Source: a virus (taxonomy: Duplodnaviria; Caudoviricetes). Taken from it: a stretch of 64,000 bases of DNA. The notes below the pieces were generated by a model that worked only from the letters and a program-made list of their open reading frames with translations, was not told where the DNA came from and did no database searches. Of this stretch, positions 30,710-59,411 are shown piece by piece (positions within the stretch are counted from its first letter, which is position 1; each line of letters starts with the position of its first letter). The DNA lies in the IMG/VR virus record IMGVR_UViG_3300005611_000006. The stretch is one strand, 5' to 3'. The position numbers were made by a program, and so were the translations under genes.

Positions 30710-32353
30710 ATGAGTGATATATATCTTGGCAATCCTTTACTAAAAAAGGCTAATACTCCAATTGAATTTAGTGAAGAACAAATTATTGAATTTATTAAAT
30801 GTAAAGAGGATCCAGTTTATTTTGCCCAAAAATATATTAAAATTGTAAACGTAGATAGGGGATTAATACCCTTTGAAATGTATGATTTTCAAAAAAAGTT
30901 AATTCGTAATTTCCATCAAAATAGATTTAATATATGTAAAATGCCAAGACAGAGTGGTAAAAGTACCACTGTTGTTTCATATCTTTTACATTATGCTCTT
31001 TTCAATGATAGTTCAAATATTGCAATTCTTGCTAACAAAGCATCCACAGCAAGAGATCTTTTAGGTAGATTGCAAACTGCTTATGAAAATTTGCCTAAGT
31101 GGTTGCAACAAGGAGTTCTTGCTTGGAACAGAGGATCTTTAGAAATTGAAAATGGATCAAAGATTGTAGCGGCATCAACATCAGCATCTGCTGTTCGTGG
31201 TGGATCATATAATATTATATTCTTAGACGAATTTGCATTCATCCCAAACCATCTTGCAGATCAGTTTTTTGCATCTGTATATCCTACAATTTCTTCTGGT
31301 ACTTCAACCAAAGTAATTATGGTTTCTACCCCACACGGTATGAACCATTTTTATCGTTACTGGCACGATGCTGAAAGAGGAAAAAATAAATATGTGGCAA
31401 CTGAGGTTCATTGGACCGAAGTTCCTGGGAGAGATGATAAATGGAGAGAAGATACAATTGCAAATACTTCTGAACAACAATTCAGGGTTGAGTTTGAATG
31501 TGAGTTCTTAGGATCAGTAGATACTCTTATTGCACCTAGTAAGTTGAGGAGTATGGTTTATGATGATCCAATTAAAAGAAATGCAGGATTAGATATCTAT
31601 GAAAATCCCATTTTAGACCACGATTATTTAATTACTGTAGATGTTGCAAGAGGAGTTGAAATTGATTACTCAGCGTTCATAGTTTTTGATATAACGACTT
31701 TTCCACATAAGATAGTTGCAAAATATAGAAATAATGAAATAAAACCAATGATATATCCTTCAGTAATTCATCAAGTTGCAACATCTTATAATAATGCTTT
31801 TATATTATGTGAAGTTAATGATGTTGGAGATCAAGTTGCTAGTATATTACAATATGATTTAGAATATCAAAATTTACTTATGTGTTCGATGAGGGGTAGA
31901 GCTGGTCAATTGGTTGGTCAGGGATTCTCCGGTAAGAAGACTCAACTTGGAGTTAAAATGTCGAAGGTGGTAAAAAAAGTAGGATGTTTAAATTTGAAAA
32001 CTATTATAGAAGAAGATAAACTAATATTCAATGATTATGAAATTATTTCAGAACTAACTACATTTATTCAAAAATCAAATTCTTTTGAAGCAGAAGAAGG
32101 TTGTAATGATGATTTAGCAATGTGCCTTGTAATTTATGCTTGGTTAGTTGCACAAGACTACTTTAAAGAATTAACTGATCAAGATGTAAGAAAACGACTA
32201 TATCAAGAGCAAAAAAATCAAATTGAACAAGATATGTCTCCTTTTGGATTTATTTTGGATGGTAGAGAATCTACTTCACTAGTAGATTCTGAAGGTGACA
32301 TTTGGCATTTAGATGAATACGGAGATAAGTCTTATATGTGGGAGTATAGATAA
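30710..32353 (+). CDS. gp17: Terminase large subunit gp17
   Basis: YLGNP.LKK, Walker A PRQSGKSTT, Walker B IIFLDEFAF, STPHGMNHFY and DDLAM. Confidence 0.97.
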   Translation: MSDIYLGNPLLKKANTPIEFSEEQIIEFIKCKEDPVYFAQKYIKIVNVDRGLIPFEMYDFQKKLIRNFHQNRFNICKMPRQSGKSTTVVSYLLHYALFNDSSNIAILANKASTARDLLGRLQTAYENLPKWLQQGVLAWNRGSLEIENGSKIVAASTSASAVRGGSYNIIFLDEFAFIPNHLADQFFASVYPTISSGTSTKVIMVSTPHGMNHFYRYWHDAERGKNKYVATEVHWTEVPGRDDKWREDTIANTSEQQFRVEFECEFLGSVDTLIAPSKLRSMVYDDPIKRNAGLDIYENPILDHDYLITVDVARGVEIDYSAFIVFDITTFPHKIVAKYRNNEIKPMIYPSVIHQVATSYNNAFILCEVNDVGDQVASILQYDLEYQNLLMCSMRGRAGQLVGQGFSGKKTQLGVKMSKVVKKVGCLNLKTIIEEDKLIFNDYEIISELTTFIQKSNSFEAEEGCNDDLAMCLVIYAWLVAQDYFKELTDQDVRKRLYQEQKNQIEQDMSPFGFILDGRESTSLVDSEGDIWHLDEYGDKSYMWEYR

Positions 32354-40011: not shown

Positions 40012-41445
40012 ATGTTCCTTTCAGAACAATTGCAGAACAAGTGGCAACCCTTACTTGAAGCAGAAGGAGCTGGTGCAATCACCGATCCTTACCGTAAGGC
40101 TGTTACCGCTGTTCTGTTAGAAAACCAAGAAAGATTCCTCGCAGAGGAAAGAGGATTTTTATCAGAAACCCCTGCTGGATCTTATGCAAGCCAAGCTGGA
40201 GCTGCTGGTGCTGCTGGATTTAGTGGTTCGGCAGGTGCAACTGGACCTGTTGCTGGTTTTGATCCTGTTCTAATCTCTTTGATTAGACGTTCAATGCCTA
40301 ACCTCGTTGCTTATGATCTCGCTGGCGTTCAACCAATGAATGGTCCTACCGGACTTATCTTTGCAATGAGAGCTAAGTATGTAGATCAGAACGGTGCAGA
40401 AGCACTATACAACGAAGTTGATACTGCATACTCTGGTCAGGATGATGGATTCAATACCACTACTGGAAACTATACTGGTGGTACTGATGACGGTGCATCT
40501 GTTGGTTTCGGAACCACTGGATTCGCAGGTGGCGGATCTGCAGCTGGAAGCAACCCTGGAGATCTAAACAACGCTGGTGCTACTGGAACTGAGTACAGAG
40601 TTGGCCAGGCAATGAGCACCTTTGATGCTGAGAGTCTTGGATCAGAAGCTGGTGATCAGTTCAACCAGATGGCATTTGCTATCGAGAAGCTTGCCGTTAC
40701 TGCGAAGTCAAGAGCACTCAAGGCTGAATACACTTTGGAACTTGCTCAAGACCTTAAGGCGATTCACGGTCTCGATGCTGAAGCTGAATTAGCAAATATT
40801 CTCTCTACTGAGATTCTTGCTGAAATCAACCGTGAAGTCATCCGTACCATCTACAAGATCGCTGAACCAGGCGCTCAGGCAAATGTTGCCACCAATGGTG
40901 TATTTGACCTTGATGTTGACTCTAACGGTCGTTGGTCTGTTGAGAAGTTCAAGGGTCTACTCTTCCAGTTAGAGCGTGATGCTAACGCTATCGCTCAAAG
41001 AACTCGTAGAGGAAAGGGCAACATTGTTATGTGCTCTGCTGATGTTGCTTCTGCACTAACAATGGCAGGTATCCTTGATTATACTCCTGCACTCAATGCT
41101 AACCTTAACGTAGATGATACTGGCAACACATTTGCTGGTACTATCAATGGTAAGTTTAAGGTCTACATTGATCCATATGCTGCTAACGTATCTGCTAATC
41201 AGTACTACGTTGTTGGTTATAAGGGTTCTAATCCTTATGATGCTGGTCTTTTCTATTGCCCATACGTTCCTCTTCAGATGGTTCGTGCTGTTGGACAAGA
41301 CACTTTCCAACCAAAAATTGGATTCAAGACTCGTTACGGTATGGTTGCAAATCCATTTGCTGCTGGAACCGATCAAGACGAAGGTGGAATCAGAGCAAAC
41401 AGAAACCGCTACTACAGAAGAGTTCAAATCAGAAATCTTATGTGA
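40012..41445 (+). CDS. gp23: Major capsid protein gp23
   Basis: GVQPMNGPTGLIFAMR, SRALKAEYTLELAQDLKAIHGLDAE and FQPKIGFKTRYG; AGGAG RBS; strongly biased codon usage. Confidence 0.99.
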   Translation: MFLSEQLQNKWQPLLEAEGAGAITDPYRKAVTAVLLENQERFLAEERGFLSETPAGSYASQAGAAGAAGFSGSAGATGPVAGFDPVLISLIRRSMPNLVAYDLAGVQPMNGPTGLIFAMRAKYVDQNGAEALYNEVDTAYSGQDDGFNTTTGNYTGGTDDGASVGFGTTGFAGGGSAAGSNPGDLNNAGATGTEYRVGQAMSTFDAESLGSEAGDQFNQMAFAIEKLAVTAKSRALKAEYTLELAQDLKAIHGLDAEAELANILSTEILAEINREVIRTIYKIAEPGAQANVATNGVFDLDVDSNGRWSVEKFKGLLFQLERDANAIAQRTRRGKGNIVMCSADVASALTMAGILDYTPALNANLNVDDTGNTFAGTINGKFKVYIDPYAANVSANQYYVVGYKGSNPYDAGLFYCPYVPLQMVRAVGQDTFQPKIGFKTRYGMVANPFAAGTDQDEGGIRANRNRYYRRVQIRNLM

Positions 41446-41463
41446 TTTTGGTTTCACATTTAC

Positions 41464-41490
41464 AGGAGGGGCATTTGCCCCTCTTTTTTT
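41464..41490 (+). terminator. Rho-independent terminator after gp23
   Basis: gaggggca-tt-tgcccctc followed by a T tract. Confidence 0.88.
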
Positions 41491-41520
41491 ATGCTAATAA
41501 ATAATACAAAAAGGAGAGTG

Positions 41521-46001: not shown

Positions 46002-46283
46002 ATGTTTATACTTACTGTTAATGGAAATAGTTTAGAAGGTGTATTTTCAGTTGCTAATGAAGATAAAGAAAAAGTTCTTTTAATATTTGTTGAAGAAGAT
46101 GATGCATCAAGATATTTAATGATGTTAGAAGAACTTGGATATATTGGTATAGAAGTTACAGAGGTTGATCCTGAAGTAGCAATTTTAACCTGTGAGCATT
46201 TCAATTATCAGTATGCTATAATTACTCCTAATGAATTAGTTATTCCACCAAATTATGATTATATTTCAAAAGCTAAAGTATAA
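46002..46283 (+). CDS. DUF3110-like protein (cyanobacterial family)
   Basis: EGVFSV and F.EEDDA.RY..MLE pattern. Confidence 0.7.
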   Translation: MFILTVNGNSLEGVFSVANEDKEKVLLIFVEEDDASRYLMMLEELGYIGIEVTEVDPEVAILTCEHFNYQYAIITPNELVIPPNYDYISKAKV

Positions 46284-47973
46284 AAATTTCTTAAGTTCTG
46301 GAAACTATTGGACGGATATAAACTTCACTAAACATAGATCAACATTAGTTGTTGGTCAAAATGGTGCAGGAAAAAGCACAATGCTTGATGCATTAACTTT
46401 TGTTCTTTTCAATAAACCATTTAGAAAAATTAATAAATCTCAATTAGTAAACACTGTAAATGAAAAAGAATGTTATGTTGAAATTACTTTTACTATAGGA
46501 AGCGAAGAATATAAAATAGTTCGTGGAATTAAACCTAATATTTTTGAAATATACAAAAATGGAAAAATATTTGATAAGTTAGCATCTTCTGTAGACCAAC
46601 AAAAACTTCTAGAGCAAAATATATTAAAGTTAAATTATAAGTCATTTACACAAATTGTAATTCTTGGATCATCTAATTTTGTTCCTTTTATGCAATTGTC
46701 TCTTCAGAGTCGTAGAGAGGTTGTTGAAGATATCTTAGATATTAAAGTTTTTTCTTCAATGAATGAAACTGCAAAAGTATATTTGAAAGAAGTTAAAGAT
46801 AAGATTAAGCAATTAACATATAAAAAAGATAATATAGAATATAAAATAGAAACTCAAAATAAACTAATAGAAAAACTTGATAAAGCAGAGAGCAATTTTG
46901 TAGATGATAAGAAGAATAAAATTAGAGAGTTAGAAATTGAAAAAAATAAAATAAGGGATATTATAGATAAAATAATTTCTAAAGTTGAAGATTTGAATAG
47001 TATATCTGTAAATTATTCTGATTCTATTTCAAGGTTAAAAAAGTTTGAATCTCTTAAGGGTAAAATACAACAAAAAATTTCATCTATAGTTAATGACCAT
47101 AAATTTTTTACTGATAATACGGTTTGCCCTACCTGCAAGCAAAACATTGATGAAGATTTTAGATTAAATAAAATTGAAGAAACTCAAAGTAGTGCAAAAG
47201 AACTTCAAAAAGGTTTCAAAGATTTAGAACTAGCTATTAAAAATGAAGAAGAGAGGGAAGAAAAATTTACTTCAATATCAAAAGAAATTATTTCTTTAAA
47301 TAATGATATATCTAAAAAAAATACTACTATTTCTGAGTATGAAAAACAGATCGTATCATTACAATCGGAAATTCAAGCTATTATCGAAAACACTGAAGAG
47401 AGAGATATTGAAATAAAAAAAATACAATCTCTTAAATCTGAATATGAAAATTGTTTTAATGAAATTTCTTCAAACAAAGAAGAATTGATAAATTATGAGT
47501 TTATTATTTCTTTATTGAAAGATGACGGTGCTAAAACAAAAATTATAGATAAGTATTTACCTTTAATTAATCATAATTTGAATAAGTATCTAGATTTATT
47601 GGAGTTTTCAATTAATTTTACATTAGATGAAGAATTTAATGAAAAAGCTTTAAATCCAATTTATGAAGATTTTTCATATTCTTCTTTTAGCGAAGGTGAA
47701 AAGATGAGAATTGATTTGTCACTTTTATTCACTTGGAGAGAAATTGCAAAAGTAAAAAATTCCACAAATACAAATTTATTAATACTTGATGAAATTTTTG
47801 ATAGTTCTCTTGATGACTTTGGTACAGATAATTTTACAAAGATTATTCGTTATGTTGTTGAAAAGTCAAACGTTTTTGTAATATCTCATAAAAGAGAAGA
47901 ACTTGAAGAAAAATTTGAAAATACTCTAAAGTTTGAGAAACAAAAAGGATTTAGTATGTTATCTTCTAATTAA
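46255..47973 (+). CDS. gp46: Recombination ATPase gp46 (Rad50-like)
   Basis: GQNGAGKST, CPTC zinc hook, FSEGEKMRID and LILDE. Confidence 0.96.
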   Translation: MIIFQKLKYKNFLSSGNYWTDINFTKHRSTLVVGQNGAGKSTMLDALTFVLFNKPFRKINKSQLVNTVNEKECYVEITFTIGSEEYKIVRGIKPNIFEIYKNGKIFDKLASSVDQQKLLEQNILKLNYKSFTQIVILGSSNFVPFMQLSLQSRREVVEDILDIKVFSSMNETAKVYLKEVKDKIKQLTYKKDNIEYKIETQNKLIEKLDKAESNFVDDKKNKIRELEIEKNKIRDIIDKIISKVEDLNSISVNYSDSISRLKKFESLKGKIQQKISSIVNDHKFFTDNTVCPTCKQNIDEDFRLNKIEETQSSAKELQKGFKDLELAIKNEEEREEKFTSISKEIISLNNDISKKNTTISEYEKQIVSLQSEIQAIIENTEERDIEIKKIQSLKSEYENCFNEISSNKEELINYEFIISLLKDDGAKTKIIDKYLPLINHNLNKYLDLLEFSINFTLDEEFNEKALNPIYEDFSYSSFSEGEKMRIDLSLLFTWREIAKVKNSTNTNLLILDEIFDSSLDDFGTDNFTKIIRYVVEKSNVFVISHKREELEEKFENTLKFEKQKGFSMLSSN

Positions 47974-49054: not shown

Positions 49055-49999
49055 ATGAGAAATGATTTTTTGTGGGTGGAAAAGTATTCCCCCAAAAAAA
49101 TTGAAGATTGTATTCTTCCCGAAAGCACTAAAAAGACATTTCAAGATTTTGTAGATAAGGGAGAGATCTCAAATCTTTTACTTGCTGGTCCTCCCGGAAT
49201 TGGAAAAACTACTGTAGCTAAAGCACTTTGTAATGAACTAGGAGCAGATTATTATGTCATCAATGGATCCGATGAAGGTAGATTTTTGGACACGGTTAGA
49301 AACCAAGCAAAGAACTTTGCTTCGACCGTATCAATTCAAGCAACTTCTAAACACAAAGTCATCATCATTGACGAGGCAGATAACACGGGGAACGACGTAC
49401 AACTCCTCCTACGGGCAAATATTGAGGCATTTTATAACAATTGCAGATTCATCTTCACCTGCAATTACAAAAACAAAATCATTGAACCTCTTCACAGCAG
49501 ATGTGCAGTTGTCGAGTTTGGCATCAGATCAAAAGACAAACCAAAGATCGCAGCAAAGTTCTTTGAGAGGCTCAAAGAGATCTTGGATAAAGAAAAAGTT
49601 GAAGCAGACGATAAAGTTCTTGTTCAATTAATCAATAAGCATTTTCCTGACTGGAGAAGAGTACTCAATGAATGTCAGAGGTACTCTGTTTCAGGAAAAA
49701 TTGATTCAGCAATTCTTGCAACTTTTTCTGATGTAAAGATTGATGACATTATCAAACATCTTAAAACTAAAAACTTTACAGATGTACGTAAATGGGTAAT
49801 AGCACACCTAGATAATGATTCTGGATCATTACTAAGGATGGTTTATGACGGTCTATACCAACACCTAGATGGTCCTAGCATTGCTGCTTGTGTACTTATT
49901 GTATCAAAGTATCAATATCAATCTGCTTTCGTTGCAGACCAAGAGATCAACCTTCTTGCTGCTTTAACGGAAATTATGTGTGAGTGTAATTTCAAATGA
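49055..49999 (+). CDS. gp44: Clamp loader large subunit gp44
   Basis: LWVEKY.P, GPPGIGKTT, IIDEAD, PLHSRC and FPDWRR. Confidence 0.97.
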   Translation: MRNDFLWVEKYSPKKIEDCILPESTKKTFQDFVDKGEISNLLLAGPPGIGKTTVAKALCNELGADYYVINGSDEGRFLDTVRNQAKNFASTVSIQATSKHKVIIIDEADNTGNDVQLLLRANIEAFYNNCRFIFTCNYKNKIIEPLHSRCAVVEFGIRSKDKPKIAAKFFERLKEILDKEKVEADDKVLVQLINKHFPDWRRVLNECQRYSVSGKIDSAILATFSDVKIDDIIKHLKTKNFTDVRKWVIAHLDNDSGSLLRMVYDGLYQHLDGPSIAACVLIVSKYQYQSAFVADQEINLLAALTEIMCECNFK

Positions 50000-50160
50000 A
50001 AAAGAAAACAACACCACAAAATGTAGAAGAAGCAAATAGAGGTTTGTTTACTTCTACAATGAATTTACCTGAAGCTGCTGAGCATTGTGGAATGACTCAA
50101 AAAGAAATGAAAATGACTTTTAGAGAATTTTTAAAATACAATAAATCTGATTGGATTTGA
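49996..50160 (+). CDS. Small putative HTH protein (54 aa)
   Basis: Translated by hand: MKKKTTPQNVEEANRGLFTSTMNLPEAAEHCGMTQKEMKMTFREFLKYNKSDWI; ATGA overlap with gp44. Confidence 0.75.
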   Translation: MKKKTTPQNVEEANRGLFTSTMNLPEAAEHCGMTQKEMKMTFREFLKYNKSDWI

Positions 50161-50162
50161 TT

Positions 50163-50771
50163 ATGAAAGGGATTGAAATTTTGGATGAAATTTTAACGGA
50201 AATGAATATCATTCAGGAAGAATATAAGCAAATATTGTATTATTATGTTTATGCAATTTTCTTTCCGAATGGTAATTTTTACATAGGGTCTCGTCAGTGC
50301 AAATGCAAACCGGATGAAGATAAAAAATACACTGGTTCCTATAAAGATAAAAGCAATGGTGATGGTAAAAAGATCATTTTAAAAACTTTTTCTAATGAAA
50401 ATGAAATGACTTTTTATGAGACAAATTTAATTCAAAAATTTAAATCGTATTCAATTTGCATTAATGCAAATTCGTCTCCGCGAGTTTGTACTAATATTAA
50501 CTTTAATAATGAAGTTTTTAAAACATCTGATCTGGCGAATATTTATGGATATACAAGTTCATCAACACTTTCTAATTGGTGTGTAATTGCTGAAGTTAAT
50601 AGATTTAGGATGGGAAAATACTTTTATATGAATAATGAAGATAAACTAAAACTTGATGAGTTATCAAATTTTATTAAATCTGGATATACTTATGAGGATT
50701 ATCTTAAAACTAAAGGTAAATCAAATGAAGAAATTAAAAGTATCCTTTCAAAAGTAAAGGGTTTAAATTGA
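50163..50771 (+). CDS. Free-standing GIY-YIG (Seg-like) homing endonuclease with C-terminal HTH-like region
   Basis: YYVY...FYIGSR...Y.GS and a later conserved Glu/Asn; TSDLANIYG..SSTLSNW resembles an HTH. Confidence 0.75.
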   Translation: MKGIEILDEILTEMNIIQEEYKQILYYYVYAIFFPNGNFYIGSRQCKCKPDEDKKYTGSYKDKSNGDGKKIILKTFSNENEMTFYETNLIQKFKSYSICINANSSPRVCTNINFNNEVFKTSDLANIYGYTSSSTLSNWCVIAEVNRFRMGKYFYMNNEDKLKLDELSNFIKSGYTYEDYLKTKGKSNEEIKSILSKVKGLN

Positions 50772-50818
50772 CTATCTCTTGGTTTTTTATCTTAAACTTC
50801 CCTATCGTAAACCTGATT

Positions 50819-51652
50819 ATGAAATCACTAAAGACTCCCCTTAGATATCCTGGTGGAAAGAGTAGAGCACTAACTAAATTATCCCAGTTTCTTCCAGATA
50901 TTTCCAATTATAATGAATTTAGAGAACCATTTGTTGGCGGAGGTTCTGTAGCAATCTATGTTACTAAAATGTATCCAGATATTCCTATTTGGGTTAATGA
51001 TTTATATGAACCTCTTTATAACTTTTGGGTACAACTACAGGTAAACTCTAATGAAATTAGGTCTAAACTTGTACAACTTAAACAAAGGCACCCTGACCCT
51101 AGTTCAGCGAAATTTCTTTTCTTGGAATCTAAAGAGTATCTTTCTCAAGAACCCAGAAAATGTGATGCTACGTCTCGTGCTATCTCTTTTTATATTGCTA
51201 ACAAGTGCTCTTTTTCTGGTCTCACTGAGTCCTCATCCTTTTCTTCCGAAGCATCTGAATCAAACTTCTCAATGCGAGGAATAGAAAAACTACCAGAGTA
51301 CTCTAAAATAATTAAGAATTGGAAGATTACCAATTTTTCTTATGAACAATTACTTACAAACGATAGTAGAACTTTCGTTTATCTTGATCCTCCTTACGAC
51401 ATTCGGGATTCTTTATATGGTCATAAGGGCAATATGCATAAAGGATTTGATCATGATAAGTTTGCTGAAAATTGCAATAGTTTTCGGTGTCCTATTCTTA
51501 TCTCTTACAACAATGACGATAAAGTAATTGATAGGTTTACTGATTGGAAAACTGCTGAGTTTTCTCATACTTATACAATGAGATCAGTTGGAACATATAA
51601 TAAAGATCAGCAGGAAAGAAAGGAATTAGTTTTATTAAATTATGATCTATGA
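50819..51652 (+). CDS. dam: DNA adenine methyltransferase (Dam-like)
   Basis: PLRYPGGKS, EPFVGGGSV and YLDPPY. Confidence 0.93.
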   Translation: MKSLKTPLRYPGGKSRALTKLSQFLPDISNYNEFREPFVGGGSVAIYVTKMYPDIPIWVNDLYEPLYNFWVQLQVNSNEIRSKLVQLKQRHPDPSSAKFLFLESKEYLSQEPRKCDATSRAISFYIANKCSFSGLTESSSFSSEASESNFSMRGIEKLPEYSKIIKNWKITNFSYEQLLTNDSRTFVYLDPPYDIRDSLYGHKGNMHKGFDHDKFAENCNSFRCPILISYNNDDKVIDRFTDWKTAEFSHTYTMRSVGTYNKDQQERKELVLLNYDL

Positions 51653-52028
51653 ATTGAAAGATTGGTTGAATTCTATCAATCAAACAAAGAAAAACTTGAT
51701 GGATGAAAATCCTTTATCTGAAAAAGAATACTCTCCATTTGTAATAAACAAGTGTTTATCTGGACATATTGATTGTTTGATGTATTCAAATGAGATGAAT
51801 ATTAATCATAATCTAGATAAAAAGTTACAATATGATTTCTTTATAAATATTTTGAGAACTAAGAAGAGATTTTCTCCTTGGATTCGTAAAGATATAGTCA
51901 AAGATCTTGATTATGTTAAAAAATATTATGGGTATAATAATGAAAAAGCACAACAAGCTTTGAATATTTTGACAAAAGATCAAATTAACTTTATTCGCAA
52001 TAAATTTGAAACTGGAGGAAGAAAATGA
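51642..52028 (+). CDS. gp62: Clamp loader small subunit gp62
   Basis: WLNSIN, Y.PF.IN.CLS, QYDF and YYGY..EKA. Confidence 0.93.
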   Translation: MIYELKDWLNSINQTKKNLMDENPLSEKEYSPFVINKCLSGHIDCLMYSNEMNINHNLDKKLQYDFFINILRTKKRFSPWIRKDIVKDLDYVKKYYGYNNEKAQQALNILTKDQINFIRNKFETGGRK

Positions 52029-52465
52029 CTGTGGTAAATGAACCTGAAGTAAATTGGAAACCATCTGATATGGTAGAAGTATCACTAAATGAACCAGATG
52101 ATTTTCTAAAGGTTCGTGAAACTTTGACTCGTATTGGAGTTGCTTCTCGCAAGGAAAAAAAACTTTACCAGTCTTGTCACATTTTACATAAGCAAGGTAA
52201 ATATTATATTGTTCATTTTAAAGAACTATTTGCTCTTGATGGTAAAAATACAAATTTGACTGTAAATGACATTCAAAGAAGAAATCGTATTGTAAATCTG
52301 ATTTCTGATTGGGGTCTTATTAATGTTATTGATGAAGATAAGATTCAAGATATTGCACCTTTGAATCAGATTAAAGTTCTTTCTTATAAAGACAAATCTG
52401 ACTGGACTTTGGAAGCAAAATACAATATTGGATCCAAAAAGAAGAGAGTAGAAGAAACCGAATAA
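52025..52465 (+). CDS. regA: Translational repressor RegA
   Basis: PDDFLKVRETLTRIGVAS and LYQSCHILHKQG.YYIVHFKELF. Confidence 0.97.
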   Translation: MTVVNEPEVNWKPSDMVEVSLNEPDDFLKVRETLTRIGVASRKEKKLYQSCHILHKQGKYYIVHFKELFALDGKNTNLTVNDIQRRNRIVNLISDWGLINVIDEDKIQDIAPLNQIKVLSYKDKSDWTLEAKYNIGSKKKRVEETE

Positions 52466-52495
52466 AAATGGGGGGTATCTGACATCCCCTTTTTT
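52464..52495. terminator. Probable bidirectional terminator after regA
   Basis: A tract, ggggggt-atctg-acatcccc stem, T tract. Confidence 0.65.
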
Positions 52496-52503
52496 ATGCT
52501 TTG

Positions 52504-52571
52504 TGTTATAATTAGTACTGGATGCCGAAAGGGTCCACAAAACACAATCTCGCTTATTAAGGAGAAGTTAA
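52504..52571 (+). promoter_or_regulatory. Extended -10 promoter and structured hsp20 5' UTR (ROSE-like)
   Basis: TGnTATAAT at 52504-52512; hairpin tggatgcc-GAAA-gggtcca; hairpin tctcgctt-att-aaggaga that pairs the SD. Confidence 0.6.
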
Positions 52572-52997
52572 ATGTCTTTAACAAAGTATAATGCTGCAAA
52601 CTTAGAGCAGCTTATGGATCGTATTGCAAAGAACTCAATCGGAATGGATGAATACTTCGATAGAGTTTTTAGCACATCTGTAAATAATTACCCTCCCTAC
52701 AATGTAATTCAAGTAAATAGTAATGAAACAAAATTAGAAATTGCATTAGCAGGATTCAAGAAGGAGCAAGTTAATGCTTACACCGAGTATGGAAAACTTT
52801 TTGTCAGGGGGGAGAAAGAACCATCTGATGAAAAGGGAACGTTTATCCACAAGGGATTGGCTCAGAGAAACTTTGAAAGATCCTGGACCCTTTCTGAAGA
52901 CACTGAGGTCTCCAACGTCGTATTTGAGGACGGACTTTTATCAATCACACTATCAAAAGTAGTTCCAGAAGCACATAAACGTAAAGATTATCTATAA
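52572..52997 (+). CDS. hsp20: Small heat-shock protein Hsp20
   Basis: NYPPYN, LEIALAGF, HKGLA.R.F.RSWTL and FEDGLL.I.L..VPE. Confidence 0.96.
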   Translation: MSLTKYNAANLEQLMDRIAKNSIGMDEYFDRVFSTSVNNYPPYNVIQVNSNETKLEIALAGFKKEQVNAYTEYGKLFVRGEKEPSDEKGTFIHKGLAQRNFERSWTLSEDTEVSNVVFEDGLLSITLSKVVPEAHKRKDYL

Positions 52998-53030
52998 ATA
53001 AATTTGGGGAATCCCAAATATCGTCGCAAT

Positions 53031-53069
53031 AAAGGAGATTCTGGCAAAATCCAGAGTATCTCCTTTTTT
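53031..53069 (+). terminator. Long hairpin terminator after hsp20
   Basis: aaaggagat-tctgg-caaaat-ccaga-gt-atctccttt followed by a T tract. Confidence 0.8.
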
Positions 53070-53070
53070 A

Positions 53071-53099
53071 TTGCAAAATATTCTATGTGGTGCTATACT
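53071..53099 (+). promoter_or_regulatory. sigma70-type promoter for the gp43 operon
   Basis: TTGCAA-17nt-TATACT with TGn. Confidence 0.65.
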
Positions 53100-53127
53100 A
53101 CATAGAGAGAAATACTATGAGGTAATT

Positions 53128-53412
53128 ATGGCAATTAAAATTGTAATGCTAAAATCTTTGGAAGATGTTATCGCTGATGTCAAAGAAATGGTGTCTGGAG
53201 ATAGCGTAATTGGATATACTCTTACAAATCCTTTCACACTAACTTTCAGGGAAGAAGCACAGGTTAAGTTTTATCCTTATGCTCCACTTTCTACTGATAA
53301 AATTATTCCAATTCCATCTGATTGGGTAGTTTCTATTGTAGAACCTATGGAAGAAATTAAAAACTCATATTTGGAGAATATCGATGGAAAATCTGAAAGT
53401 ACTGATAGCTAA
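53128..53412 (+). CDS. Conserved hypothetical protein
   Basis: MAIKIVMLKS.EDVIADVKEM; GAGG RBS supports the ATG at 53128. Confidence 0.8.
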   Translation: MAIKIVMLKSLEDVIADVKEMVSGDSVIGYTLTNPFTLTFREEAQVKFYPYAPLSTDKIIPIPSDWVVSIVEPMEEIKNSYLENIDGKSESTDS

Positions 53413-53647
53413 GCCAAACTTGGTTTTGCTTACTCAAGTTGAAGAAGTAGAATCAGAGTTGGGAGAACCTGATTGTAAGTTAATAAATCCTTTTGAACTT
53501 TTTAAAAATTCTGAAGGTAAATACGATCTAAGAAAGTGGCCAGATTTTACAGATCAGAGAGAGATGAAAATTCACTCAGACTCTATCTTTACAATTTTGG
53601 ATCCAACTCCTTGGCAATTTGAAATGTATCTGAAATTATCTAAATGA
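53384..53647 (+). CDS. Conserved hypothetical protein
   Basis: EEV.SELGEPDCKLINP motif; GGAG RBS. Confidence 0.8.
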   Translation: MENLKVLIAKPNLVLLTQVEEVESELGEPDCKLINPFELFKNSEGKYDLRKWPDFTDQREMKIHSDSIFTILDPTPWQFEMYLKLSK

Positions 53648-56139
53648 AGTTTTACACAAATATTGTTCTTGTAGGGAATGAAATTCTTTCCCGAGGATTT
53701 GATAATGGGAAATCTTTTCAAAATAGAGAAGAATTTTATCCAACTTTATATGTACAATCTAGTAATAAGACAAAATATAAAACACTTGATGGACAATATG
53801 TTGAAGAGGTAAAACCAGGAACAATTAAAGAAACTCGTAACTTTATTGAAAGATATAAAGGTATTGATAACTTTAAATTATTTGGTAATACAAGATATGT
53901 AAATCAATACATTTCTGAAAAATATCCAGAAGATCATATAGTATTTGATATTACTAAAATCAAACTAATTACTATTGATATTGAGGTTGCTTCAGAAAAT
54001 GGATTTCCTGATGTAAGAAGTTGTAGTGAAGAAATACTTACAATTTCTATTCAGAATTATGCTACAAAAAAAGTTATTACTTGGGGTGTTAAACCTTTTG
54101 AAAGTAAAGACCCAAATGTAAAGTATATTGAATGTAAAGATGAATTTGATCTTTTAGACAATTTTATTGCATACTGGGAATATGATACACCGGAAGTAAT
54201 TACTGGTTGGAATTGTGAGTTTTATGATATTCCATACATTTATGGAAGACTTAAAAAGGTATTGGATACTAAAACTGCAAAGAAGATTTCTCCTTGGGGA
54301 ATCGTAACTGAAGATGAAGTTGTAATTAATGGCAGACAAAATGATCGTTGTCAGATTGCAGGAGTTACAGTTCTAGATTATCTTGATCTTTATAAGAAAT
54401 TTACTTATACAAATCAAGAGTCTTATCGACTGGATCATATTGCTTTTGTTGAACTTGGTGCAAATAAACTAGATCACTCTGAGTATGAAACCTTCAAAGA
54501 TTTTTATACTAAAGACTGGAATAAATTTGTAGAATACAATATCATTGACGTTAAACTTGTTGACCGTCTGGAAGACAAGATGAAACTTATTGAGTTAGCC
54601 ATTACTATGGCATATGACTCGAAAAGTAATTACAATGATGTATTCTACCAAGTTAGAATGTGGGACTCAATTATCTACAACTATCTTAAAAAGAGAGATA
54701 TTGTAATTCCATTTAAGACTGATAATAAGAAAGATTCTAAGTATGCTGGTGCATATGTAAAAGAACCAGTTCCAGGGATGTATGACTATGTTGTAAGTTT
54801 TGACTTGAACAGTCTATACCCACACTTGATTATGCAGTATAATATCTCTCCAGAAACTCTATTGAATGATAGATATCCAGGAGTATCTGTTGATAGACTT
54901 TTAGAAGGAAAAGTTGAAATACCTGATAATCATCCATTTGCAGTTTGCGCTAATGGAGCACAATACAGGAAAGATGTTAGAGGATTTCTTCCAGAGTTGA
55001 TGGATAAGATGTATAGTGATCGAGTCATCTATAAAAAGAAGATGATCGAAGCTAAGAAAAAATATGAAAAAAATCCATCTATAGAATTAGAGAAAGAAAT
55101 TGCTAGATGTAATAATATTCAGATGGCAAAAAAGATTTCTCTAAACTCTGCTTATGGTGCGGTTGGAAATGAATATTTTAGATATTTCCGAATCGAGAAT
55201 GCAGAAGCAATTACTCTCTCTGGACAACTTTCAATTCGTTGGATTGAAAGTAAGATGAATTCTTATATGAATAAAGTACTTAAAACTAATAATACTGATT
55301 ATGTTATTGCTTCTGATACTGATTCTATCTATCTTAATATGGGTCCTTTTGTTGAAGCTATATTCAAAGGAAGAGAGAAAACTACTGAAAGCGTTATTTC
55401 GTTCCTTGACAAGGTCTGTAAGGTGGAACTTGAAAAATATATTGAAAGTTCTTACCAAGAATTGGCCAACTACGTAAATGCGTATGACCAGAAGATGCAA
55501 ATGAAGAGGGAGAATATTGCTGATCGTGGTATTTGGACTGCAAAGAAAAGATATATCCTCAACGTTTGGGATAGTGAAGGAGTAAAGTATTCTGAACCTA
55601 AACTTAAAATGATGGGAATTGAAGCAGTTAAATCTTCTACACCTTCTCCTTGTAGAACTAAGATTAAAGAAGCCCTTGCTATCATTATGAATCAAACTGA
55701 GGATGATCTTATTAAGTTTATCGATCAGTTCAAAGGTGAATTTTTCAATATGCCACCGGAAGATATTTCATTCCCAAGGTCTGTTAATGATATTAAAAAG
55801 TATAGAAATCCTCAAACGATTTATTCTAAGGGAACTCCAATTCATTGCAGAGGAGCTCTTTTATATAATCACTATGTTAAAAAGAAGAAAATTGAAAATA
55901 AGTATGCATTGATCGCAAATGGAGAAAAAATTAAGTTTTGCTACTTAAAGAAAGCAAATCCAATTAGAGAAAATGTTATGTCTTTTATTCAAAAATTCCC
56001 AAATGAACTTGGATTAAATAAGTATGTAGATTATGATCTTCAATTCGAAAAAAGTTTCTTGGATCCTTTAAAAACTATCATTCAAGCAATTGGTTGGAAC
56101 ATTGAAAAGACTGTAAATCTTGAATTGTTTTTCTCATGA
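53644..56139 (+). CDS. gp43: Family B DNA polymerase gp43
   Basis: Exonuclease DIEV and GWN..FYDIPY; polymerase DLNSLYP, KISLNSAYG and SDTDS. Confidence 0.98.
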   Translation: MKFYTNIVLVGNEILSRGFDNGKSFQNREEFYPTLYVQSSNKTKYKTLDGQYVEEVKPGTIKETRNFIERYKGIDNFKLFGNTRYVNQYISEKYPEDHIVFDITKIKLITIDIEVASENGFPDVRSCSEEILTISIQNYATKKVITWGVKPFESKDPNVKYIECKDEFDLLDNFIAYWEYDTPEVITGWNCEFYDIPYIYGRLKKVLDTKTAKKISPWGIVTEDEVVINGRQNDRCQIAGVTVLDYLDLYKKFTYTNQESYRLDHIAFVELGANKLDHSEYETFKDFYTKDWNKFVEYNIIDVKLVDRLEDKMKLIELAITMAYDSKSNYNDVFYQVRMWDSIIYNYLKKRDIVIPFKTDNKKDSKYAGAYVKEPVPGMYDYVVSFDLNSLYPHLIMQYNISPETLLNDRYPGVSVDRLLEGKVEIPDNHPFAVCANGAQYRKDVRGFLPELMDKMYSDRVIYKKKMIEAKKKYEKNPSIELEKEIARCNNIQMAKKISLNSAYGAVGNEYFRYFRIENAEAITLSGQLSIRWIESKMNSYMNKVLKTNNTDYVIASDTDSIYLNMGPFVEAIFKGREKTTESVISFLDKVCKVELEKYIESSYQELANYVNAYDQKMQMKRENIADRGIWTAKKRYILNVWDSEGVKYSEPKLKMMGIEAVKSSTPSPCRTKIKEALAIIMNQTEDDLIKFIDQFKGEFFNMPPEDISFPRSVNDIKKYRNPQTIYSKGTPIHCRGALLYNHYVKKKKIENKYALIANGEKIKFCYLKKANPIRENVMSFIQKFPNELGLNKYVDYDLQFEKSFLDPLKTIIQAIGWNIEKTVNLELFFS

Positions 56140-56267
56140 GTAAATTATTTACTGTAAATCTTAATGAAAAGGAAATAAGATTAATATTAAAAAATATAAA
56201 ACATTGCGAATGTGATGATTTATACGGAAGACTTTGGAGAATGTTATTCAAAAAAATAAAAAATTAG
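56136..56267 (+). CDS. Small hypothetical protein (43 aa)
   Basis: Translated by hand: MSKLFTVNLNEKEIRLILKNIKHCECDDLYGRLWRMLFKKIKN; ATGA overlap with gp43. Confidence 0.6.
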   Translation: MSKLFTVNLNEKEIRLILKNIKHCECDDLYGRLWRMLFKKIKN

Positions 56268-56279
56268 GAGAATTTTCTT

Positions 56280-56477
56280 ATGTATGACCAATATGTAACT
56301 GACGACGGGGAAAGTAAGCAAGATAAGTGGAATCGTGGACTTGATATCTTTATTGAGTCTGTATACAAACCTGATTCCGAACTAAGAAAATGTGCCCACA
56401 ATCAAAGGTGTTATCACGAACTTATGGATGTTCGTACTAATGTGATAGAATATTTGAATACATTACGTTGGGAATAA
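56280..56477 (+). CDS. Hypothetical protein
   Basis: 65-aa ORF with AGGAG RBS; KWNRGLD.FIESV.KPD..LR.CAHNQ.CY. Confidence 0.8.
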   Translation: MYDQYVTDDGESKQDKWNRGLDIFIESVYKPDSELRKCAHNQRCYHELMDVRTNVIEYLNTLRWE

Positions 56478-56480
56478 TTT

Positions 56481-57488
56481 ATGGATTTTTTAAAAGATAT
56501 TGTAAAAGAAATTGGTGATGATTACACCAAACTAGCTGCAGATATTGATGAAACTGAAACATATGTTGACACGGGTTCTTACATTTTTAATGGACTCGTT
56601 TCAGGTAGTATATTTGGTGGTGTCTCTGGCAATAAGATTACTGCCATTGCTGGTGAGTCTAGTACTGGAAAAACTTTTTTTAGCCTCGCAGTGGTTAAGA
56701 ATTTTCTGGACACTAATCCTGATGGATATTGTTTGTATTTTGACACTGAGGCAGCTATCACTAAATCACTTGTAGAAAGTCGTGGGGTTCCTACAGATCG
56801 TTTAGTAGTTGTAAATGTTGTTACTGTTGAAGAGTTCCGTAGTAAAGCTCTTAAAGCTGTAGATATATACTTAAAAAAACCTGAAGATGAACGCAAACCT
56901 TGTATGTTTGTGTTAGACTCTTTAGGAATGCTCTCCACAGAAAAAGAGATTACTGATGCACTGAATGATAAACAAGTTCGTGATATGACAAAATCACAAC
57001 TTATTAAAGGTGCTTTTAGAATGTTGACTTTGAAGTTGGGACAGGCAAAAATTCCAATGATCGTAACCAATCATACCTACGATGTTATCGGTTCTTATGT
57101 TCCTACTAAAGAAATGGGTGGTGGTAGTGGACTTAAGTATGCTGCCTCTACGATCATTTATCTCAGCAAGAAAAAAGAAAAGGATGGAACAGAAGTCATT
57201 GGAAATATTATCAAGGCAAAGACTGCTAAGTCGCGTTTAAGTAAAGAAAATAAGGACGTTGAAATTAGATTATTTTATGATGAACGTGGTTTAGATCGAT
57301 ATTACGGATTGCTTGAATTGGGAGAACTTGGTGGAATTTGGAAGAACGTAGCAGGACGTTATGAAATAGATGGTAAAAAAGTTTATGCAAAACAAATCTA
57401 TAAAGAACCCGAAAAATATTTCACTCCAGAAGTAATGCAAGCTTTAGATGAAATTGCGAGAGGAGAATTTTCATATGGTAAATCTTGA
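56481..57488 (+). CDS. uvsX: RecA-like recombinase UvsX
   Basis: AGESSTGKTF, YFDTE, VLDSLGML and MGGGSGLKYAAS. Confidence 0.96.
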   Translation: MDFLKDIVKEIGDDYTKLAADIDETETYVDTGSYIFNGLVSGSIFGGVSGNKITAIAGESSTGKTFFSLAVVKNFLDTNPDGYCLYFDTEAAITKSLVESRGVPTDRLVVVNVVTVEEFRSKALKAVDIYLKKPEDERKPCMFVLDSLGMLSTEKEITDALNDKQVRDMTKSQLIKGAFRMLTLKLGQAKIPMIVTNHTYDVIGSYVPTKEMGGGSGLKYAASTIIYLSKKKEKDGTEVIGNIIKAKTAKSRLSKENKDVEIRLFYDERGLDRYYGLLELGELGGIWKNVAGRYEIDGKKVYAKQIYKEPEKYFTPEVMQALDEIARGEFSYGKS

Positions 57489-58032
57489 CAATTTGATTCA
57501 AGTATATGAAAATTCTTTAGATGAAAGCATTTGCAATTTTTTAATTGATACATTTGAAAATCTTAGTGAATATCAAGAAAAAATTAATAATGATTTTAAA
57601 CCTTCATTCACTCAATTTAATTTAACTGCTTGTTCTAAATTAAGTAAAGAACTTGAAGAAGTTCATAATCATGTAATTCGTAAAACTATTGAGCATAGAA
57701 ATAGTTATTATGATTTTATTGATGATAGAGTGTTTCCTGAATCACATTCATTTGAACAATTTAGGGTTAAGCGGTATAATAATGATGGTCAAGATCAGTT
57801 TAATACTCACGTAGATGTTCAAGATTATGAATCAGCAAGAAGGTTTTTAACCTTTATTTGGTACTTGAATAATGTTGAAGAAGGAGGAGAAACTGAATTT
57901 ATTAATATGAAAGTTTCTCCAAAACGAGGAAGTTTAGTTGTATTTCCTCCATTATGGATGTTTCCTCATAGGGGACTTCCTCCAATTAGCAACAAAAAAT
58001 ACATTTTACATACATATTTACACTATAAATGA
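57475..58032 (+). CDS. 2OG-Fe(II) oxygenase
   Basis: HxD (HVD), YLNNVEEGGETEF, FPP.W.FPH.G and KY. Confidence 0.9.
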   Translation: MVNLDNLIQVYENSLDESICNFLIDTFENLSEYQEKINNDFKPSFTQFNLTACSKLSKELEEVHNHVIRKTIEHRNSYYDFIDDRVFPESHSFEQFRVKRYNNDGQDQFNTHVDVQDYESARRFLTFIWYLNNVEEGGETEFINMKVSPKRGSLVVFPPLWMFPHRGLPPISNKKYILHTYLHYK

Positions 58033-59411
58033 TGGAAAACATTGAAACTACTATTATCAGAAATCTTCTTTTCAACAATGACTATTGTAGAAAAGTTCTT
58101 CCATTTATTAACAAAGAATATTTTGAAAATTTTCATGAGAAAGTAGTTTTTGAAGAAATTTCTAAATTTATGGTTTCATATGAAAATCTTGCAACAAAAG
58201 AAGTATTGTTAATTGAATCTGAAAAAAGAACAGATATCACAGAAGACACATATAAAGTTGTTTGTGAATATGTATCTTCTCTTGATAATTCTCCTGCAGA
58301 CTTAGAATGGCTCTATGATGTAACTGAAAAGTGGTGTAGAGATCGTGCAATTTATATTGCTTTGATGGAATCTATTAAGATTGCTGATGGTCAGGATGAG
58401 AAGAAAAACAGAGATGCAATTCCAAGCATTCTTCAAGAAGCTTTATCTGTAAGTTTTGATAACAATATTGGTCACGACTATTTACAAAATTATGAAGAAA
58501 GATATGAATACTATCATAAGAAAGAGGAGAAACTTCCGTTTGATCTTGAATATTTTAACAAAATTACCAAAGGTGGGTTGCCTCCTAAAACTCTTAATAT
58601 CGCGCTTGCTGGTACAGGTGTCGGCAAATCTCTATTCATGTGCCACGTTGCTAGCTCCGTCTTGCTCCAAGGACGGAACGTTCTCTATATTACAATGGAG
58701 ATGGCAGAAGAGAAAATTGCTGAACGAATTGACGCAAATCTTTTGAACGTACCGATTCAACAACTAACTGATTTACCAAAAGCAATGTTTGAGAATAGGG
58801 TAAATAAGATTAGCAAGAAAACACAGGGAACTTTTATTATTAAAGAATATCCGACCGCTTCTGCTCATACAGGGCACTTCAAGTCACTTCTTAATGAACT
58901 TGCACTTAAGAAATCTTTTAAACCTGATATAATTTTTATCGACTATTTGAATATCTGTGCTTCTAGTAGATATAAGTCAAACTTTTCAGTAAACTCATAT
59001 TCTTATGTAAAGGCGATTGCTGAAGAACTTCGTGGACTTGCTGTTGAATATAATGTTCCGATTGTGAGTGCAACTCAAACAACTCGTAGTGGTTATGGTA
59101 ACTCTGATGTAGAATTGACAGATACTTCAGAATCTTTCGGTCTTCCTGCAACTGCTGATCTTATGTTTGCACTTATTGCTACAGAAGAACTTGAGAATCT
59201 TGGTCAGATTATGGTCAAGCAACTTAAAAATCGTTATAATGATCCAACAATGAATAAAAGATTTATTGTTGGTATTGATCGTGCGAAAATGAGATTGTAC
59301 GATTGTGAACAATCCGCACAAGAAGATATACTTGACTCTGGTAAAGATGAAGAGTATAATCCTGAAGAGGATCAAAAACAAAACAAATTTTCTGGTTTTA
59401 AATTCACATGA
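58029..59411 (+). CDS. gp41: Replicative helicase gp41
   Basis: AGTGVGKS, IDYLNI, SATQTTR, SESFGLPATAD and KQLKNRY. Confidence 0.97.
   Translation: MMENIETTIIRNLLFNNDYCRKVLPFINKEYFENFHEKVVFEEISKFMVSYENLATKEVLLIESEKRTDITEDTYKVVCEYVSSLDNSPADLEWLYDVTEKWCRDRAIYIALMESIKIADGQDEKKNRDAIPSILQEALSVSFDNNIGHDYLQNYEERYEYYHKKEEKLPFDLEYFNKITKGGLPPKTLNIALAGTGVGKSLFMCHVASSVLLQGRNVLYITMEMAEEKIAERIDANLLNVPIQQLTDLPKAMFENRVNKISKKTQGTFIIKEYPTASAHTGHFKSLLNELALKKSFKPDIIFIDYLNICASSRYKSNFSVNSYSYVKAIAEELRGLAVEYNVPIVSATQTTRSGYGNSDVELTDTSESFGLPATADLMFALIATEELENLGQIMVKQLKNRYNDPTMNKRFIVGIDRAKMRLYDCEQSAQEDILDSGKDEEYNPEEDQKQNKFSGFKFT

Follow-up and report, generated by a model that had tools for sequence, protein, structure and literature searches.

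Genes and nested reading frames of the window

The window analysed here is a stretch of 64,000 nucleotides from a tailed virus (IMG/VR record IMGVR_UViG_3300005611_000006), which PHROG matches and BLAST identify as a T4-like cyanomyovirus. It has a GC content of 31% and carries all of its long open reading frames (ORFs) on the plus strand. Recognised genes encode the portal, major head protein, sheath, terminase, gp46/47, gp45, gp44, dam, gp62 and regA, and further hsp20, gp43, uvsX, gp41 and mazG. By UvsX, the nearest cultured relatives are S-T4 (92%), S-SCSM1, ACG-2014f and P-SSM2 (83%). The subject of this study is a group of small ORFs nested in the replication and recombination genes. All same-strand nested ORFs of at least 50 amino acids (aa) within 48-60 kb lie in the +1 frame. 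The initial annotation had listed such ORFs in gp44, dam, hsp20, gp43, uvsX and gp41, and all of them were recovered, each in +1 to its host gene. The following ORFs in four host genes are conserved among orthologues:

49055-49999, plus strand: gp44 clamp-loader gene, host frame (314-aa ORF; 80 orthologues, 74-89% aa identity)
49254-49631, plus strand: gp44-a, nested +1 ORF (125 aa; polar and basic, rich in Ser, Thr, Lys and Gln)
53644-56139, plus strand: gp43 DNA polymerase gene, host frame (831-aa ORF; 100 orthologues)
55301-55477, plus strand: gp43 nested +1 ORF, or gp43-a (58 aa; starts within the YVIASDTDS motif)
56481-57488, plus strand: uvsX recombinase gene, host frame (335-aa ORF; 95 orthologues, 85-94% identity)
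56548-56775, plus strand: uvsX-a, nested +1 ORF (75 aa; Leu-rich and hydrophobic, spans the Walker A region)
57082-57240, plus strand: uvsX-b, nested +1 ORF (52 aa; hydrophobic N-terminus, basic C-terminus)
58029-59411, plus strand: gp41 primase-helicase gene, host frame (460-aa ORF; 92 orthologues)
58492-58746, plus strand: gp41 nested +1 ORF (84 aa; basic, spans the Walker A region)

Stop avoidance in the +1 frame

The orthologue sets are the best 80 database matches and therefore sample one clade. The gp44 set comprised 80 IMG/VR loci with 10-kb flanks, and later sets comprised 80 loci each for gp23, uvsX, gp41, gp43 and gp17. Codon alignments were guided by protein alignments, and the window was excluded from every statistic. 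Expected stop counts were obtained by shuffling synonymous codons within each sequence. Because related sequences are not independent, column-swap nulls were used, in which whole alignment columns are exchanged among columns sharing the consensus residue, so that phylogenetic inertia is kept. Columns were swapped gene-wide, within the interval or within neighbourhoods of 80 codons; in the last version the statistic was the best stop-depleted stretch (“desert”) anywhere in the gene, which makes it scan-corrected and keeps regional codon usage.

Across the regions of the five ORFs, +1 stops are depleted 6- to 100-fold in 80-100 orthologues per gene. With column-swap nulls, five intervals reached p ≤ 0.0025 in the first data set, and uvsX-b passed too in the larger sets; the scan p values of the five ORFs are at most 0.0025-0.007. 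Among the 64 triplets of the +1 frame, none is as depleted as TAA, TAG and TGA (0.08-0.16 of expectation), and TAT, TAC and TGG rank with the most enriched. Inside the intervals, A-ending codons of families with T as second base stand at 1% before a purine and at 25% before a pyrimidine; outside the intervals they stand at 24% before a purine. G-ending Leu and Val codons are present before G, where they form TGG, but not before A, where they would form TGA.

Several general causes of this pattern were considered and rejected. A regional shift in codon usage does not account for it, since shuffles confined to the interval, with local codon usage kept, still predict at least 3- to 10-fold the observed number of stops, and within-region and local column swaps still show strong depletion. 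General avoidance of A before purines at codon junctions is rejected because codon families with C or G as second base show no contrast between purines and pyrimidines inside the intervals. Frame-independent avoidance of TAA, TAG and TGA is rejected because stops in the +2 frame of the same intervals are at expectation. Amino-acid conservation is likewise rejected as the driver, since stop avoidance is unrelated to local amino-acid conservation in the orthologue alignments and gp23 and regA are without deserts; no +1 desert was found in gp23 (81 sequences), gp45 (63), gp62 (56), regA (50), gp47 or the mazG-like gene.

The columns at risk of forming stops are polymorphic, with 2-6 codon types including T/G transversions, and only 0-11% of their codons are stop-forming, compared with a median of 21-34% outside the ORFs. 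Within-site synonymous diversity amounts to 72-87% of the pooled diversity, so that synonymous sites are near saturation. ATG occupies the modal start column in 63-90% of sequences, above the codon-usage expectation in every case, and the terminal stops are kept in 95/95 (uvsX-b), 89/100 (gp43), 77/92 (gp41) and 55/80 (gp44) sequences, against 40-48% expected (31% for gp44). As judged from these alignments, selection is shown to purge the host-synonymous codons that make +1 stops and to keep both the 3' stop and the 5' ATG.

The conserved nested ORFs

In gp43, the nested ORF at 55301-55477 corresponds to the sole +1 desert (columns 573-627) in 850 alignment columns, with 0.11 stops per sequence where 2.66 are expected, a score that no null replicate reached. 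Ninety-four of the 100 orthologues have no stop in the frame and 90 have the ATG. The terminal stop is formed by GTA or GTG before A (42 sequences expected), and the distance from ATG to stop ranges from 58 to 67 codons. The predicted peptide consists of a hydrophobic N-terminal helix followed by a basic amphipathic helix, and its mean column identity is 85%. AlphaFold2 (AF2) returned two confident helices with a predicted local distance difference test (pLDDT) score of 89.5, a result that any Leu-rich peptide may give and that we do not count as evidence. With its hydrophobic and basic amphipathic helices, this peptide is the best candidate for a structured functional product.

The uvsX gene holds two of the ORFs. 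In uvsX-a (columns 23-93), 0.02 stops per sequence were counted against 2.03 expected in 95 orthologues, of which 93 have no stop; again no null replicate reached the score. Of the conserved columns with Leu or Val before a purine, all six vary among 2-4 codon types, and the share of stop-forming codons is 0% in each. The ATG at 56563 is better conserved than that at 56548. In the same gene, codons that are rare in the host frame are conserved at single columns of the Walker A region (~56600-56680) in the 95 orthologues, namely ATA (78%), GTA (91%), GGG (85%) and TCA (90%), which points to strong local synonymous constraint, as far as the alignment tells. The second ORF, uvsX-b (columns 202-244), has 0.13 against 1.83 expected stops per sequence, also without a null replicate reaching the score, and an ATG in 85/95 sequences (63 expected). 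Its terminal stop is invariant where 39.6 sequences would be expected to have it: the host Leu codon varies between TTG, TTA and CTG and is never CTY. The length of uvsX-b ranges from 50 to 63 codons across orthologues.

The gp41 nested ORF (columns 166-231) shows 0.16 against 2.48 expected stops per sequence in 92 orthologues, and no null replicate reached its score. The stop column is expected in 44 sequences and the ATG, found in 65/92, in 51.5; the ATG at 58504 is better conserved than the one at 58492.

For gp44-a, the desert in columns 92-174 contains 0.26 against 1.91 expected stops per sequence (80 sequences; scan p=0.0025). The frame is free of stops in 59/80 orthologues, against ~8.5 expected to be open by within-region column swaps (p<0.0005), and the start column has ATG in 63/80 (44 expected). 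The stop counts are split, with 0 stops in 59/80 and 6-9 in 4/80, and AT-rich relatives occur in both classes; among these sequences the lineage pattern looks like retention versus all-or-none loss. Downstream, gp44 has a second conserved position:

49743-49924, plus strand: gp44-b, second conserved +1 ORF position (decayed in the window, with five stops; open in relatives)

At gp44-b (columns 231-291), 70/80 orthologues have no stop, with 0.34 against 2.49 expected stops per sequence. The two gp44 nested ORFs meet at a TAA-ATG junction, of which the stop (24.8 sequences expected) is present in 55/80 and the ATG in 74/80 (35.7 expected). At 49739-49745, the orthologue host codons GTA-AAT give this TAA-ATG in the +1 frame; the window has CTC-AAT, by which the stop is gone and the ATG is kept.

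Database matches to the gp44-a product (43) were considered as possible homologues. The two that were looked up (123 and 172 aa) are gene calls on frameshift-broken gp44 in long-read contigs and were rejected. In two long-read “pilon” contigs of the ENA (L488 and L489, 186-199 kb), the annotation breaks gp44 into a number of short genes and has in its place either the +1 ORF or a hybrid ORF that includes the Gp44 lid domain. These breaks are probably uncorrected indel errors that seed spurious proteins in public databases.

Composition and constraint

The patches of atypical codons reported in the initial annotation are real and are common to the orthologues; what is enriched in them is a C ending in gp44 and gp41 and a T ending in gp43 and uvsX. 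In comparison with columns of the same residue elsewhere in the gene, T is enriched at third positions of the gp43 and uvsX-a intervals, giving hydrophobic +1 residues (p<0.0005), and C at those of the gp44-a and gp41 intervals, giving Ser, Pro, Thr and Ala (p<0.0005). Third-position C stands at 0.39 against 0.19 in gp44-a and at 0.23 against 0.13 in the gp41 nested ORF. The protein products may be membrane or basic proteins.

Reduced synonymous variability, another mark of coding overlap that had been put forward, is modest. Between phylogenetically independent close pairs, synonymous differences are 12-38% less frequent inside the ORFs, with uvsX-a at 38%; only the C-terminal half of the gp43 ORF falls further, to 0.29 of the gene mean, and by parsimony the gp41 ORF shows no reduction. 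From these rates, the +1 amino-acid sequence appears weakly constrained, except in the C-terminal half of the gp43 ORF.

Nested ORFs that are not conserved

Four further nested ORFs of the window behave differently:

51051-51284, plus strand: +1 ORF in dam (77 aa; open in 4/35 orthologues, no +1 desert in dam)
51342-51527, plus strand: +1 ORF in dam (61 aa; open in 5/35 orthologues against 3.5 expected)
52774-52962, plus strand: +1 ORF in hsp20 (62 aa; open in 4/40 orthologues against 3.4 expected, no desert)
55703-55912, plus strand: gp43-b, second +1 ORF in gp43 (69 aa; open in 0/20 orthologues, with 1-6 stops each)

Since the dam, hsp20 and gp43-b ORFs are broken in most orthologues at about the expected rate, we take them to be chance shadow frames. 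Conservation of the +1 frame among orthologues, by which the initial annotation had suggested that its ORFs be judged, therefore separates two groups: gp44-a, gp43-a, uvsX-a, uvsX-b and the gp41 ORF are conserved, and the two dam ORFs, the hsp20 ORF and gp43-b are not. Interruption of the +1 frame in close orthologues, which it had named as grounds for abandoning the idea, was found for the dam, hsp20 and gp43-b ORFs only.

The major head protein gene gp23 (40012-41445) contains four +1 runs of 58-110 codons within 40385-41497 on the plus strand, including a 127-aa ORF at 41114-41497. In 81 orthologues no significant +1 desert was found in gp23 (best p=0.07), and by this comparison its +1 runs look like chance frames.

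Further candidates and antisense frames

Another candidate lies in gp46 (46255-47973):

47303-47416, plus strand: small +1 ORF inside gp46 (37 aa; further candidate)

Columns 353-386 of gp46 form a +1 desert with 0 against 1.42 stops per sequence (p=0.003). The ORF is 37-41 codons long; it has its ATG in 22/22 orthologues and is closed by a stop downstream in 21/22. The terminase gene gp17 (30710-32353) has a marginal +1 desert at ~31151-31320 on the plus strand (columns 154-196; 0.12 against 1.67 stops per sequence, p=0.04), with ATG at column 150 in 58/81 and a stop at column 204/206 in 61/81 sequences. The run in the window is 29 codons long, so that the frame is interrupted here.

On the minus strand, ORFs of 154 aa (55231-55695) and 163 aa (56579-57070) overlap the gp43 and uvsX-a nested ORFs. 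In orthologues, the codon-aligned antisense frames of gp43 and uvsX have a co-located, weaker stop desert.

Evidence against a coding interpretation

A number of observations speak against reading the nested frames as genes, and they begin with the single genome. The 48 genes of the window contain 19 +1 runs of at least 58 codons, fewer than the 22.2 ± 3.9 expected from gene-wide synonymous shuffles and the 24.2 ± 3.0 expected when codons are shuffled in 40-codon blocks. Because the shuffles match or exceed the observed count, the ORFs are what codon usage predicts, judged on this genome alone. Codon-permutation tests for overlapping genes have been described (PMC6188560), and a permutation of ORF length, suggested in the initial annotation, gave no excess of long +1 ORFs: the six focus genes have 8 runs that reach 58 codons, where shuffles predict 5.3-7.4 (p 0.09-0.45), the run lengths in gp43, uvsX and gp41 are ordinary under codon shuffling (p 0.1-1.0), and nominal significance is reached only by the gp44 run of 129 codons (p 0.013-0.017, with no correction for the 48 genes). 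Genome-wide, stop density in the +1 frame is half of that in the +2 frame, and the antisense frames hold many more long open runs than the +1 frame. The start context ATTATG, to which the initial annotation had attached meaning, occurs 83 times in the window (80 ± 8 expected), and the nested ATTATG are dictated by host-frame residues such as D-Y-V; the shared context therefore carries no weight.

The orthologue comparisons add to these points. Host-synonymous changes, all of which alter the +1 residue, accumulate at 62-88% of the rate outside the ORFs, and Ser/Leu, Pro/Leu and Met/Thr flips are common in the +1 frame. Replacements in the +1 frame are only slightly more conservative (mean BLOSUM62 score -0.72 against -0.85), a shift with p 2e-5 when pooled that is absent in uvsX and gp43. 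None of the nested products had a Pfam or PHROG match, no free-standing homologue was found, and AF2 modelled the gp44-a product with low confidence (pLDDT 51). Of the conserved nested ORFs, gp44-b has decayed in the window itself; the other five are kept. Also, the limits of deserts and ORFs were taken from the same alignments as some of the descriptive counts.

Distribution is uneven as well. On the side of a coding reading, the gp43 (58 aa), uvsX-a, uvsX-b and gp41 nested ORFs are all present in P-SSM2, a phage in culture. Six distant Kyanoviridae were compared (Syn19, S-RIM2, S-RIM14, S-CAM22, ACG-2014a and ACG-2014d): the uvsX ORFs are absent in all six, where the amino-acid sequence itself dictates the stops, the gp43 ORF is in most cases broken by a single stop, and the gp41 ORF is open in 5/6. 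In the pelagiphage HTVC008M no +1 depletion was found anywhere, the uvsX ORFs are absent and the gp41 ORF is not open. From this patchy presence, the nested ORFs are, in the genomes compared, restricted to particular lineages.

Discussion

Avoidance of stops in one phase only, limited to the stop triplets and accompanied by preservation of the end stop and the start ATG, finds its simplest explanation in translation of the frame. We therefore consider it probable, on comparative evidence from sequences, that gp44-a, the gp43 ORF, uvsX-a, uvsX-b and the gp41 ORF are genuine overprinted genes with independent initiation. The proposal that small overprinted proteins were missed by annotation finds support, by stops, ATG and composition, for five ORFs in four genes and none for the two dam ORFs, the hsp20 ORF and gp43-b. 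In the mechanism that we propose, the five +1 frames would have been maintained by evolution in a clade of T4-like cyanophages including P-SSM2 and S-T4, and ribosomes would initiate at the internal +1 ATGs on early or middle mRNAs. The products would be small proteins of 52-125 aa, those of gp43 and uvsX hydrophobic or amphipathic and those of gp41 and gp44 basic or polar. The C-terminal helix of the gp43 peptide would be constrained in sequence, and the other products mostly in length and composition. As a working guess, they may be small accessory proteins of the early programme that act on membranes or bind nucleic acids.

The most serious alternative, which we regard as unlikely, is that the open frames are a non-coding by-product of some other constraint on synonymous sites in catalytic cores that happens to exclude +1 stops; RNA structure, selection on codon context or accuracy, and gene conversion between co-infecting phages are possible causes. 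The regions indeed coincide with catalytic cores, namely Walker A in uvsX and gp41, Walker B and sensor motifs in gp44 and motif C in gp43, and the site-specific conservation of ATA, GTA, GGG and TCA in uvsX, the moderately lowered synonymous rates and the weak +1 amino-acid constraint would all fit. However, such a constraint would have to be confined to three stop triplets in one phase, with TAT, TAC and TGG enriched, and to leave the +2 frame unaffected. Local column-swap nulls still reject chance, there is no tie to amino-acid conservation, with the conserved gp23 and regA free of deserts, and the terminal stops are kept through alternation of synonymous codons. An RNA structure finds no support in an Rfam search of 48.5-60 kb, which gave no match, or in the fold of the gp43 interval, which is ordinary and no better than that of shuffles (z -0.26). 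The antisense desert co-located in gp43 and uvsX, which could also be cited for a non-coding cause, follows automatically from the avoidance of TTA and CTA before purines.

Less probable still, in our estimate, is that the frames are translated but owe their importance to translation as such or to a trans-frame product. Under this explanation either +1 ribosomal frameshifting would yield truncated enzymes with alternative tails, in the manner of PA-X, or the frames would be regulatory ORFs of which the length and not the sequence is selected. The combination of strong selection on stops and length with near-neutral +1 amino-acid change in gp44 and gp41 would agree with it, as would the rare codons CGG, TCG and ACG inside the patches. 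Against it, 5' ATGs exceed expectation and conserved +1 stops lie just upstream of them, as in the TAA-ATG of gp44, which fits independent initiation; the over-representation of ATG in the aligned genes argues for independent initiation over frameshifting. No shift site stood out in the alignments inspected, in which no systematic search was made, and the C-terminal half of the gp43 peptide is constrained in sequence. A last explanation sees chance shadow frames in every one of the +1 ORFs: the use of T- and C-ending codons in an AT-rich genome would open them, and common ancestry would account for their presence in relatives. For the five conserved ORFs it is very improbable. It accounts for the single genome, where the number of long +1 runs is matched or surpassed by shuffles and +1 stops are half as dense as +2 stops, and the dam, hsp20 and gp43-b ORFs behave exactly as it predicts. 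In the five conserved ORFs, however, synonymous sites have come close to saturation, the nulls that preserve ancestry reject chance, and the sites at risk vary, T/G transversions among them, without an A in 95 sequences.

Overprinted genes are known from other viruses. In phiX174, a phage with 5.4 kb of single-stranded DNA under strong size pressure, gene E lies inside gene D and gene B inside gene A; E is a proven lysis protein with an N-terminal transmembrane helix whose hydrophobic residues derive from third positions of the host gene. The ORFs described here resemble E as putative small +1-frame proteins wholly within a larger essential gene on the same strand, and the hydrophobic residues of the putative gp43 and uvsX-a products likewise come from host third positions. 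In contrast to phiX174, the genomes are far larger (144-252 kb in relatives), the hosts are replication enzymes and several ORFs occur together; unlike E, the products are predicted, most of them under weak sequence constraint. A nested +1 gene in a same-strand gene of a double-stranded DNA (dsDNA) tailed phage has a precedent in lambda Rz1, which is embedded in Rz; the two spanins are lysis partners, and annotation missed Rz1 for years. Our ORFs lie in genes that have nothing to do with lysis, no functional tie between host gene and nested ORF is apparent, and no lipobox or signal peptide was seen, although none was searched for. In influenza A virus, the PA-X protein uses a conserved +1 X-ORF in a polymerase gene that is reached by +1 ribosomal frameshifting and is without its own ATG; what revealed it was the conservation of the ORF together with lowered synonymous variation. 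The gp43 ORF is similar in that it, too, lies in the +1 frame of a polymerase gene and is conserved with a defined length, but in the cyanophages ATGs are over-represented at the 5' ends. Shadow ORFs explained by codon bias are also known, for example antisense ORFs in hsp70 genes. In the single genome the nested ORFs behave like these, the +1 frame of T- and C-ending codons being naturally open, and the dam, hsp20 and gp43-b ORFs fit the pattern; the five conserved ORFs fail the shadow expectation in comparative tests. Our literature searches turned up no account of genes nested in the replication genes of cyanophages.

While a gene nested in another on the same strand is accepted in a tiny phage or a spanin, the annotation of large phages discards it by default. 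Tests of ORF length in single genomes can miss such genes, and comparative tests of stop avoidance find them. The present work yields a concrete, testable list of ORFs in the cultured model P-SSM2. With slightly more confidence than doubt, we propose from these comparisons that the Kyanoviridae clade of P-SSM2, S-T4-like phages and the phage studied here holds at least 5-6 overprinted +1 genes in the catalytic cores of replication and recombination genes (gp44, gp43, uvsX, gp41, perhaps gp46 and gp17), which would encode unannotated, lineage-restricted membrane-active and basic peptides born by overprinting. If this is true, overprinted genes sit in marker genes that are routinely sequenced in marine virology. 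If the frames are translated, codon choice in the markers g43, uvsX and gp41 is partly shaped by a second frame, which would affect studies of codon usage and of the ratio of nonsynonymous to synonymous rates (dN/dS). Abundant marine cyanophages would then hold an unlisted set of early small proteins, and overprinting would have given rise to genes repeatedly within essential enzymes of a dsDNA phage whose large genome is under weak size pressure.

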